Assembly: GCA_035315345.1 (NCBI GenBank)
Contig: DATFYA010000187.1
Span: 3,436-67,435 of the forward strand
Direction of reading: 5' to 3'
Origin: Candidatus Methylomirabilota bacterium
GTDB lineage: Bacteria; Methylomirabilota; Methylomirabilia; Rokubacteriales; CSP1-6
DNA: 64,000 bases
Position 1 is the first letter of the stretch. The number at the start of each line of letters is the position of its first letter. The notes beneath the pieces are model-generated. The model saw only the letters and a program-made list of their open reading frames with translations, had not been told where the DNA came from and did no database searches. Positions 61,898-64,000 of the stretch are shown here, piece by piece. The position numbers were made by a program, and so were the translations under genes.

Positions 61898-61941
61898 CCG
61901 CAGGCACCGTATCTGGTAGGGCTCCTTCCGAGGGCCCCACT

Positions 61942-61963
61942 GTATTTTGTTGTTGCAATATAC
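61942..61963. promoter_or_regulatory. AT-rich palindrome GTATTTTG-N6-CAATATAC in the imuA upstream region; candidate SOS (LexA-type) operator/promoter
   Basis: The only strongly AT-rich stretch in the window (61935-62010). 7/8-bp arms. It sits 50 bp upstream of the imuA ATG. Confidence 0.3.
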
Positions 61964-62013
61964 TAAACAAATGACGTGTAATCAGCCCGAGACATCTATA
62001 AAGAGAACGCGGC

Positions 62014-62706
62014 ATGGCTATCCCGATCGAGTCCTCACCTCCGCCAGGGTGGGATCGTGAAGGGATCGACGGCCTGCTCGGCCTGTTCCCGCCGGGTCGG
62101 CTCAGCGAGATCGTCGGCCCCCGATCCTCCGGCGGCAGCAGCCTGCTCCTGGCCCTCATTGCCCGGATCACGACTCGCGGGCAGGTGGCCTACGTGGACG
62201 GGATGGATGCGCTCGATCCCGCCTCCGCCGCGACGGCCGGCGTCGATCTCTCCGCGCTGCTCTGGGTGAAGTGTGCAGGCCGTCTCCGCACGGCGCTGAG
62301 CGCCGCCGATCTGCTCGCCCGTTGTCCCGGCTTCTCGCTGATCGTCCTCGACCTCGACGACCTCGGGCCCGTGCCTTTCGCCGCTCAGATCCGGCTGCAG
62401 CGGGCGGTGGAAGACCGCGACGCGGCATTGGTCGTCCATACTGCACGTCATCGCGAGGGCAGCCCCGCCTCGCTGGTCGTGACGACTCGGCGTCTGGCTC
62501 CCCGCTGGAGGGGACTGCGTCCGCTCACCCGTCTCGGTGGGCTTCGCTCCGAGGTCTCCATCGCCCGCTCCCGCCTCCACCCCTCCTCCCTCTCCCCCCT
62601 GGGGAGAGGGCAGGGTGAGGGGGCTGAGGGTGAGGGGGCTGAGGGTGAGGGGGCTGGAGGTGAGAGAGGTGAGGGGCAGACCTGGGCCCTCGACTGGACC
62701 CTATGA
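62014..62706 (+). CDS. imuA: ImuA-like protein (RecA/SulA-fold component of the imuA-imuB-dnaE2 mutagenesis cassette)
   Basis: GRLSEIVGPRSSGGSSLLLALIARITTRGQVAYVDGMDALDP...GVDLSALLWVKCAG...ADLLARCPGFSLIVLDLDD. The C-terminal 45 aa (LSPLGRGQGEGAEGEGAEGEGAGGERGEG) is encoded by REP-A plus 15-bp tandem repeats. Confidence 0.65.
   Translation: MAIPIESSPPPGWDREGIDGLLGLFPPGRLSEIVGPRSSGGSSLLLALIARITTRGQVAYVDGMDALDPASAATAGVDLSALLWVKCAGRLRTALSAADLLARCPGFSLIVLDLDDLGPVPFAAQIRLQRAVEDRDAALVVHTARHREGSPASLVVTTRRLAPRWRGLRPLTRLGGLRSEVSIARSRLHPSSLSPLGRGQGEGAEGEGAEGEGAGGERGEGQTWALDWTL
62581..62677. repeat. REP-A family copy with (GAGGGTGAGGGGGCT)x3 15-bp tandem expansion, inside the imuA 3' coding region
   Basis: CCCTCTCCCCCCTGGGGAGAGGGCAGGGTGAGGGGG followed by three exact 15-mers and a degenerate fourth. 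Confidence 0.75.
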
Positions 62707-64000
62707 CCCGCATCGCCTGTCTGCTCGCCGCGACCGATGCCGAGCCCGATGGGTCCGTTCACCGCATGCTGCTCCAGGTCGCGCTGTCCCATTCGCCCCG
62801 CGTGGAAGACGGCGGCATCGGGCGTGTGTATCTCGACGCGTCGGGATTGCATGGCCTGTTCGGTGACGAGCCCCGGCTCGCCGCACGTCTCCGCGACATG
62901 ACCGCGGCCGCCGGGGTGACGGCACGTGTGGGCATCGCGGGGAGCCGGCTCGCGGCCCTGGCCGCCGCACGCCTGGGGCCCGGCGCCGCCGTCGTCGATC
63001 CGGATGGCGACGCGGCCTACCTGGCCGTCGCGCCGCTCTCCCTGCTCGAGCTGTCGAATGAGCTGTCGGCCCGGCTATCCCGCTGGGGTCTCCGCACGCT
63101 CGGGGAGCTGGCCGCCCTGCCGACCGCGGGGCTGTTCGAGCGGCTGGGAGGAGAAGGGGTGCGGCTGCAGCGGTTGGTGCGCGGCGACGACCCGCGCCCG
63201 CTGGTCTCCTGGAAGCCGGCGCTGCTCTTCGAGGAATCGGTCCAGTGCGAGTGGGGCATGGAGACGCTCCCGCCGGCGGTCGAGCGCCTGGGCGAGCTGG
63301 CCGCGCGAGTGTGCGCGCGCCTCGGCGAGCGCGGGCTCGCGGCCGACGGCTTCGAATGGGCCTGCCGCCTCGACGGCGGCCACCTCCACGAGGGCGCGCT
63401 CGCTCCCGCGGTGCCCATGACCGATGGCGCCGCCGTCGCGGCATTGCTCCGCCTCGCGCTCGAGGCGCGTCCGCCCCGCGGTATCGTCCGGGGCCTCACG
63501 CTTCGTGCCCGTCCCGCGCGGATCACGGCGATGCAGGAATCGCTCACCGATCGCTCCCGCCCCAGTCCGCGCCTCCTCGCGGCCACCCTGAATCGTTTGG
63601 TGGGCCTGGTGGGCGCGGACAGCATAGGCGCTCCGGCGCTGCTCGACAGCCATCGCCCCGACGCCGTGGGCCTGGGCGCCTATGCTCCTCCTCCTTTCTC
63701 TCTCTCTTCCCTCCGGGACGCGGGCGCGGCTTCTCCCTCTCCCCTCCGGGCCGCCGACGCGCCTTCTCGCTCTCCCCTCCGGGACGCGGGCGCGCCTCCT
63801 CCCTCTCCCCTCCGGGGAGAGGGTAGGGTGAGGGGTATCGGCGCCCTCGCCCTGCGCCGTCTCCGTCCGCCGGCTCCGGCCGCGGTCACGCTCACCTCGG
63901 GCCGTCCCGTGGCCTTGCGCTCGAGCCGGCTCAGCGGACGCATCGTGGCCGGTGCCGGCCCGTGGCGCTCCTCGGGCGAGTGGTGGAGCAAGCGGCCGTG
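62703..64000 (+). CDS. imuB: ImuB-like Y-family polymerase homolog (5' part; continues beyond window end)
   Basis: ATGA overlap with the imuA stop. MTRIACLLAATDAEPDGSVHRMLLQVALSHSPRVEDGGIGRVYLDASGLHGLFGDEPRLAARLRDMTAAAGVTARVGIAGSRLAALAAARL... is a DinB/UmuC-like N-terminus. No stop occurs before position 64000. Confidence 0.65.
   Translation, partial: MTRIACLLAATDAEPDGSVHRMLLQVALSHSPRVEDGGIGRVYLDASGLHGLFGDEPRLAARLRDMTAAAGVTARVGIAGSRLAALAAARLGPGAAVVDPDGDAAYLAVAPLSLLELSNELSARLSRWGLRTLGELAALPTAGLFERLGGEGVRLQRLVRGDDPRPLVSWKPALLFEESVQCEWGMETLPPAVERLGELAARVCARLGERGLAADGFEWACRLDGGHLHEGALAPAVPMTDGAAVAALLRLALEARPPRGIVRGLTLRARPARITAMQESLTDRSRPSPRLLAATLNRLVGLVGADSIGAPALLDSHRPDAVGLGAYAPPPFSLSSLRDAGAASPSPLRAADAPSRSPLRDAGAPPPSPLRGEGRVRGIGALALRRLRPPAPAAVTLTSGRPVALRSSRLSGRIVAGAGPWRSSGEWWSKRP
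63684..63836. repeat. REP-A family copy expanded into about 4 tandem 33-bp units (CTTCTCCCTCTCCCCTCCGGGMCGCSGGCGCG) inside the imuB reading frame
   Basis: It encodes in frame SLRDAGAASPSPLRAADAPSRSPLRDAGAPPPSPLRGEGRVRG and ends with the GGGGAGAGGGTAGGGTGAGGGG core. Confidence 0.75.

Follow-up and report, generated by a model that had tools for sequence, protein, structure and literature searches.

The 64,000-nt stretch analyzed here (the window; contig DATFYA010000187.1 of a Candidatus Methylomirabilota bacterium, order Rokubacteriales) ends, almost certainly, in a translesion-synthesis ("mutasome") operon, imuA(′)-imuB-dnaE2, of Methylomirabilota (Rokubacteria), of which it contains the 5′ part. 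In the gap in front of the imuA-like gene lies a 19-nt block, ACTAAACAAATGACGTGTA (61962–61980), whose consensus was found unchanged in every orthologous promoter compared. On this evidence, the block would be a better candidate for the element controlling the operon across this phylum than the palindrome at 61942–61963, which an earlier note on this DNA had proposed as the SOS box of the lineage.

About one-third of bacteria rely on the imuA-imuB-dnaE2 cassette for damage-induced mutagenesis, and the way it is switched on is known for some phyla only. Methylomirabilota are abundant uncultured soil bacteria, and to our knowledge no SOS system has been described for them. The 19-nt block provides a precise candidate damage-response operator for this phylum and a probe for finding its regulator, and the conservation result corrects a palindrome that looked plausible but was strain-specific.

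Conservation was evaluated over 39 distinct sequences upstream of imuA. These comprised the window strain, 21 loci from a metagenome scan with ImuA, four more distant loci from a second protein search, and 13 loci from a pattern scan of a genome collection. The ImuA homologues carry the names Methylomirabilota or Rokubacteria. The core (consensus ACTmAACAnnTGAyGTGTA) was exact in all 24 loci chosen by ImuA similarity alone, and likewise in all 39 distinct sequences. ImuA identity to the window protein was as low as 52–59% in the four most distant protein-selected loci and in the pattern-selected locus L028. The intergenic DNA flanking the core was not alignable among relatives. Taken as a whole, the conserved element consists of TTG, 5–6 nt, the core, and usually a following AT, spanning about 30 nt, and its conservation exceeds that of the proteins.

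Within the window, the 24-nt form of the block (61959–61982) was unique, with no occurrence expected. The 21-nt pattern TAYACTMAACANNTGAYGTGT, which covers the core except for its final base, was scanned over 185,579 species genomes (one per species) and gave 14 matches. Thirteen of them were located on high-GC contigs of Rokubacteria type, 11–36 nt ahead of the start of an imuA gene whose product begins with MAIPIES or a close variant, and the remaining one was a chance match in a Mucilaginibacter genome of 36% GC. Scanning of a viral collection with the core yielded seven chance matches in low-GC coding DNA, and no second copy of the block was detected in the other DNA retrieved. At loci L032, L035, L037, and L040, a Rokubacteria-type imuA promoter and gene were found in metagenome-assembled genomes labelled Dormiibacterota, Acidoferrum, Deferrimicrobiaceae, and Nitrosotalea (an archaeon); these contigs have 70–74% GC and look mis-binned.

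The palindrome, GTATTTTG-N6-CAATATAC, is present where the earlier note had placed it, and the AT-rich 116-bp gap described there was also recovered. The gap extends from the stop codon of the upstream open reading frame (ORF; TAG, 61895–61897) to the ATG of the imuA-like ORF at 62014. Its GC content is 50%, compared to 70.5% for the window, and a 60-bp stretch from 61943, forming the core of the gap, is the GC minimum of the whole window at 32%, the second-lowest value anywhere being 45%. Complementarity extends to 7 of the 8 arm positions, so the palindrome is imperfect; it was unique in the window even when three mismatches were allowed, with none expected from shuffled sequences.

Its presence and uniqueness, its overlap with the −35-like TTG, and the usual control of this cassette by LexA (PMC8565304) would all favor the palindrome as the SOS (LexA) box of the lineage. 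The comparison with relatives, however, gave a different result. Only the window strain showed complementarity of 7/8, and values of 6/8 or more were found in 8 of the 39 sequences; the median was 3/8, compared to 2/8 expected by chance, and no compensatory changes were observed. The upstream gene ends about 20 nt ahead of the promoter in 21 of the 39 sequences (the T-run form). In place of the left arm, these have a T-run that immediately follows the stop codon of that gene, and arm complementarity is only 1–4 of 8. In the window strain, the left arm coincides with one copy of a direct repeat, yATyTnG, and the conserved block is a separate element next to the palindrome. Judged from these alignments, the palindrome is a strain-specific coincidence, arising at the junction of the proximal yATyTnG copy with the 5′ edge of the block. 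A role as operator is largely refuted by conservation, and we consider it very improbable that the palindrome is the LexA box of this lineage.

The yATyTnG pair was found in 17 of the 39 orthologous sequences, at −50 to −52 and at −19 (−18 at one locus) relative to the core. The two copies are about 32 bp apart, corresponding to three helical turns, and they co-vary, with CTAG present in both at locus L019. They are absent from the 21 T-run loci, which keep the core. The direct repeat possibly represents a second regulatory input.

The block can be read as a promoter (Table 1). Its −35-like hexamer would begin with the conserved TTG, and the −10-like element would lie within GTGTAAT, which was invariant except for TGTATA at locus L042; in the window, the candidate −10 would fall inside GTGTAATCA. 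Measured from the −35-like hexamer, the spacing is 17–18 nt for TGTAAT and 19–20 nt for TAATnn (TAATCA here). In five relatives (L010, L015, L016, L024, and L039), the ATG of imuA is located 8–9 nt past TGTAAT, while in the other relatives the offsets cluster at 18–19 and 26–34 nt. A distance of 8–9 nt is the geometry of a leaderless transcript; it would place the −10 within GTGTAATnn and implies putatively leaderless imuA mRNAs in these five relatives. Two further interpretations of this segment were rejected: TAyACT as the −10, which lacks a −35 partner and is altered to AATACT or TGTACT in distant relatives, and a leader peptide initiated at the conserved RTG of the core, as nothing is conserved downstream of TAAT.

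Promoter spacers are normally free to vary. Here, the spacer is filled by the invariant ACTmAACAnnTGAyG, and this conservation points to a bound protein. The block is thus predicted, with good confidence, to combine a promoter with a protein-binding site.

An explanation without any operator was also considered. According to this explanation, the block would be an unusually constrained promoter, dependent on an alternative sigma factor or on leaderless initiation, and the operon would not be damage-regulated here. The largely asymmetric distribution of the conserved positions, the non-canonical −10, and the fact that a second copy of the block was found nowhere are consistent with it. In contrast, lineages with ImuA identity of about 52% have retained a spacer in which 15 of 17 positions are either fixed or two-state, and the conserved parts are contiguous, whereas alternative-sigma promoters consist of two hexamers 16–18 nt apart. 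A constrained promoter with no operator therefore appears distinctly unlikely.

The core also contains a weak dyad, yACTmAACA-NN-TGAyGTGTA, in which 5 of 9 pairs are symmetric here and 7 of 9 in some relatives (e.g., TACTCAACAGGTGATGTGTA). This symmetry is suggestive, not decisive.

The overall reading that we favor, and regard as probable, is that of a mutasome operon in which the block serves as both promoter and repressor operator. The operon promoter, composed of the −35-like TTGnnn and the −10-like element inside GTGTAAT, would drive a leaderless mRNA in some relatives. The repressor operator would fill the spacer and overlap the −10, and RNA polymerase would be kept off by the bound regulator until the latter is removed upon DNA damage. 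This regulator would most likely be LexA or a functional analogue. That it is LexA itself is a serious possibility falling slightly short of probable; in that case, the block would be a LexA-binding motif not described so far. Such a new motif is plausible, since the imuA-imuB-dnaE2 cassette is a recurrent member of SOS regulons and LexA motifs differ widely across phyla, with 17 reported (PMC8565304).

Thirteen published LexA motifs were compared with the 39 upstream regions. The sole exact match, CCT-N10-AGG, was observed in 1 of the 39; none of the motifs was conserved, and none matched in the window strain. A one-mismatch form, GGTT-N10-AACA, was present in 17/39 relatives with a spacing that differs between lineages, and was not present in the window. 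A GTT-N10/11-AAC palindrome spanning TTG and the core was rejected as well, as its spacing changes between lineages. When the window and 296 kb of retrieved loci were searched for lexA and recA with LexA of E. coli, B. subtilis, and M. tuberculosis, neither gene was found, the sole RecA match being ImuA. No recA, lexA, or uvr gene was present in the window, as annotated by Pfam, or in the retrieved loci.

Several observations weigh against the block being a promoter with a LexA-type operator. No copy was found before any other gene, as determined with the 21-nt pattern, an exact search insensitive to the variation ordinarily seen within a regulon. The dyad of the core is weak in the window strain, with p ≈ 0.05 before correction for the choice of center. 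A sigma-70 consensus scan found no promoter, because the candidate −10 TGTAAT has G at hexamer position 2, a position that is normally invariant. The invariant 19-nt site is longer and more rigid than usual LexA boxes. No lexA (S24-peptidase gene) was located within 10 kb of imuA in any neighborhood seen, and the best 120 matches of a consensus-like LexA query belonged to Firmicutes, Armatimonadota, and Actinobacteria, with no LexA of Methylomirabilota among them.

In terms of the length and rigidity of the block and its occurrence at imuA only, a dedicated regulator fits about as well as LexA. A regulator of this kind, distinct from LexA, could be a MerR-type activator acting on the dyad in an over-long 19–20-nt spacer, or a factor that also uses the yATyTnG copies (at about −42 and −75). 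With TAATnn as the −10, the spacer has this length and the ATG of the five relatives mentioned above lies 6–7 nt downstream, which is an ideal leaderless geometry. The weak dyad is positioned exactly within the spacer, the 21-nt pattern was found before imuA only, two repeats spaced by three helical turns occur in nearly half of the sequences (17/39), and no known LexA motif is present. On the other hand, the direct repeats are missing from the T-run loci that keep the core, and no regulator gene is syntenic with the cassette. We also know of no MerR-type control of an imuA-imuB-dnaE2 cassette. A dedicated non-LexA regulator is therefore rated as rather unlikely, and a repressor operator within the promoter remains the preferred reading.

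Neighboring regulator genes were rejected as candidates because none is syntenic across lineages. These were a LysR gene downstream of dnaE2, which is divergent from a GNAT gene, a HigA-like gene found in L045 only, and an AraC-like gene in L019. At locus L045, imuA is immediately preceded by the HigA-like HTH_3 antitoxin gene, and imuB is separated from dnaE2 by a small gene on the reverse strand (9539–9847 and 12095–12325, respectively). A perfect 10-nt inverted repeat, CTAAATCTTG/CAAGATTTAG, was also observed upstream of imuA at this locus. No separate operator was found upstream of dnaE2 where it is split from imuB (L045).

The identity of the cassette was established from near-identical DNA reaching beyond the window. 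An identical ImuA is encoded on six metagenome contigs. Contig L001 is 99.7% identical to window positions 54870–64000 and reaches 6.3 kb further, its position 9131 corresponding to window position 64000; dnaE2, located beyond the window end, was read from this contig. L001 carries a complete imuB of 464 aa and, beginning 8 nt past the imuB stop, an ORF of 1186 aa. The encoded DnaE2 scored 1212.3 bits with the NCBIfam model NF004225 "error-prone DNA polymerase" (cutoff 939) and failed the replicative DnaE model NF004226 (629.5 bits, cutoff 1002). Since the near-identical contigs show the rest of imuB followed by an error-prone DnaE2, the identification of the cassette is right, and the dnaE2 gene that the earlier note had predicted past 64000 does exist. 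The cassette itself is ordinary.

In this strain, DnaE2 contains a 152-aa mini-intein (CVVGDTRII...DLIVHN) between YGFPE and SHAASFA (L001 11429–11884). Both the N- and C-terminal splicing motifs are present, and the extein junction is clean. The intein-less DnaE2 orthologue of L045 reads YGFPESHAASFA uninterrupted, and L042 has an intein at the same site.

The ImuA-like protein matched Pfam RecA over residues 23–113 (E = 8.6e-12; 45.5 bits, cutoff 27) and aligned to RecA residues ~55–147 of solved structures. Its P-loop, GPRSSGGSS, has no Walker A lysine, which fits published work describing ImuA as a homologue of RecA that lacks an ATPase site (PMC6511836). With the curated models, scores remained below the cutoffs, at 31.5 bits for ImuA′ (NF058630, cutoff 65) and 30.4 bits for ImuA (NF033429, ImuA_translesion, cutoff 150). 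Precomputed Pfam annotation of the identical protein gave PF27531 (MT3502_N, the ImuA′ N-terminal domain), which supports kinship with ImuA′. By these matches, the protein is a RecA-fold protein at the imuA position and a member of a divergent subfamily.

The ATG of imuB at 62703 overlaps the TGA of imuA (62704–62706) as ATGA, which couples the two genes translationally, and the ORF remains open up to 64000; both the coupling and the truncation at the window end had been correctly described before, as had the nature of the product as an inactive Y-family polymerase. The ImuB-like protein matched Pfam IMS with 30.3 bits (cutoff 23.2), at profile positions 69–147 of 148 only, and Pol IV structures from their residue ~78–84 onward. 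When the protein was aligned with its relatives and E. coli DinB, non-acidic residues were found at the positions corresponding to D8, D103, and E104. As read from this alignment, the protein is a catalytically dead Y-family homologue that lacks the catalytic carboxylates of Pol IV.

ImuB runs from the first beta strand (RIACLL; window 62703–62800) straight into the palm, and the fingers, about 60 residues (Pol IV ~11–77), are absent. The same fingers-less form was found in four relatives, L042–L045, with ImuA identities of 55–59%, while L028 retains the fingers segment. No mention of fingers-less ImuB forms was found in two survey papers. Such proteins show to what extent the Y-family fold is dispensable to a purely structural ImuB. 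The C-terminal region of about 70 aa (GPWRSSGEWW...DEWDVELADGTLCRLAHDGSAW.L.GIYD) is conserved among six relatives and, on the basis of this conservation, would correspond to the ImuB-C extension. As for a beta-clamp motif of the QLxLF/QLPLWG type, only a conserved Q-E-[ST]-L-x-[DG], without the terminal aromatic residue, was observed past the little-finger region.

Both genes contain in-frame repeats (Table 1), encoding SPLGRGQGEG(AEGEG)n in ImuA and (SPLRDADAP)n in ImuB. Three copies of a 33-bp hairpin element, CTCTCCCC-N3-GGGGAGAGGGnAGGGTGAGGGG, are present in the window (18568–18600, 62590–62622, and 63803–63835). The ImuB array differs between the window and the 99.7%-identical L001, and GRGQGEG-like stretches were seen at the same position of the ImuB linker in distant relatives. 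The element looks like a REP-like (repetitive extragenic palindrome) repeat tolerated in disordered protein linkers.

These peculiarities raise the question of whether the cassette is decaying and no longer functional. The loss of about 60 residues of ImuB equivalent to Pol IV 11–77, the repeat arrays inside both the imuA and imuB ORFs, and the ImuA/ImuA′ hidden Markov model scores below the cutoffs would be consistent with decay. However, no ORF is broken, the repeats preserve the reading frame, the fingers-less form of ImuB is shared by lineages with 55–59% ImuA identity (L042–L045), and the interruption of DnaE2 is a complete mini-intein with both splicing motifs and a clean extein junction. 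The promoter block is also strongly constrained, and neither frameshifts or stops in most relatives nor dN/dS values near 1 were seen. A decaying cassette is hardly credible under these circumstances.

In its most specific form, the interpretation would be that the block is a DNA-damage repressor site of Methylomirabilota, either a new LexA motif or the site of a non-LexA regulator, controlling a mutasome with a fingers-less ImuB and an intein-gated DnaE2. This combination is put forward tentatively, as possible and short of likely. If true, splicing of the DnaE2 intein would add a post-translational gate on mutagenesis.

The ORF preceding the gap encodes a 148-aa predicted membrane protein without any Pfam match. 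A consensus scan revealed a weak terminator-like hairpin after this gene (Table 1); its folding was no better than that of shuffled sequences (z = −0.29), and a function as terminator is only a possibility. Folding of the flanks did not exceed that of shuffles either, and the T-rich left arm of the palindrome was rejected as a terminator, as its hairpin folding was not above that of shuffles. An Rfam search over the gap matched no RNA family. The remainder of the window, 1–58000, is metabolic and transport-related according to Pfam annotation, with no DNA-repair gene. It includes genes for malate dehydrogenase, fumarase, an SdhA-like flavoprotein, SucC, acyl-CoA dehydrogenases, several ABC transporters, a molybdopterin dehydrogenase, and PEP (phosphoenolpyruvate) mutase. 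A DinB_2-superfamily protein at 20988–21530 is not a polymerase.

Table 1. Coordinates of the promoter elements, genes, and repeats at the imuA end of the window.
Feature	Position	Strand	Remark
Intergenic promoter region of the imuA operon	61898..62013	.	116 bp, lowest-GC part of the window
Direct repeat yATyTnG, distal copy TATCTGG	61910..61916	+	52 nt upstream of the core
Weak terminator-like hairpin GGGCTCCTTCCGAGGGCCC with T-rich tail	61919..61937	+	After the upstream gene; consensus scan
Palindrome GTATTTTG-N6-CAATATAC	61942..61963	.	Present in this strain, not conserved
Direct repeat yATyTnG, proximal copy TATTTTG	61943..61949	+	Equals the left arm of the palindrome
Putative −35-like hexamer TTGCAA	61953..61958	+	TTG conserved 5–6 nt upstream of the core in relatives
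Invariant core ACTAAACAAATGACGTGTA (consensus ACTmAACAnnTGAyGTGTA)	61962..61980	+	Candidate operator, by conservation
Putative −10-like element TGTAAT or TAATCA	61977..61984	+	Within GTGTAATnn
imuA-like gene, 230 aa	62014..62706	+	RecA-fold core, P-loop without lysine, repeat-derived C-terminal tail GEGAEGEG
Hairpin element CTCTCCCC-N3-GGGGAGAGGGCAGGGTGAGGGG with 15-bp ×4.3 tandem array (62612–62675)	62590..62675	+	In-frame, 3′ end of imuA
imuB-like gene, first 432 of 464 codons	62703..64000	+	Inactive Y-family polymerase homologue without fingers domain
33-bp ×3.6 tandem array (63699–63816) ending in a hairpin-element copy	63699..63835	+	In-frame, ImuB linker

When compared with known systems, the operon shares features with several of them. 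The mycobacterial LexA box is GAAC-N4-GTTC, and a box of this type is absent here. The proteins resemble the ImuA′-ImuB-DnaE2 mutasome of mycobacteria (M. tuberculosis Rv3395c-Rv3394c and dnaE2; PMC10421592, PMC11791113) in the RecA-fold accessory protein without a Walker A lysine, the catalytically inactive Y-family ImuB whose long C-terminal region is conserved, the error-prone DnaE2, and the PF27531 match. Unlike in mycobacteria, where the cassette is split, all three genes are contiguous here. The ImuA score of 31.5 bits compared to the ImuA′ cutoff of 65, the ImuB without fingers, and the DnaE2 with a mini-intein are further differences.

The proteobacterial imuABC SOS operons (Caulobacter, Pseudomonas, and Myxococcus; PMC6511836, PMC11002988) have the same three-gene order in one operon and likewise a conserved promoter-proximal site upstream of imuA. 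In contrast, the ImuA of the window reached only 30.4 bits with NF033429 (cutoff 150), and the proteobacterial LexA motifs CTGT-N8-ACAG, GTTC-N7-GTTC, GGTT-N10-AACC, and TTAC-N3-GTAA are absent here.

A parallel is also provided by the lineage-specific LexA motifs of Verrucomicrobia and Bacteroidetes (PMC4951493, PMC8565304), which were discovered by the same logic, as conserved sites upstream of error-prone polymerase genes; here, such a site lies upstream of imuA in a phylum without a known SOS box. Those motifs were shown to be present also ahead of lexA, recA, and further genes, and binding assays confirmed them (PMC4951493, PMC8565304). The block described here is longer, less symmetric, and known from imuA promoters alone. 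In Pseudomonas putida, LexA2 is a repressor dedicated essentially to the mutagenesis cassette, and lexA2 is the first gene of that cassette. Here, unlike in P. putida, no lexA-like gene was found closer than 10 kb to imuA; a cassette-only regulon of the LexA2 kind would nonetheless explain why the block was found at imuA alone.

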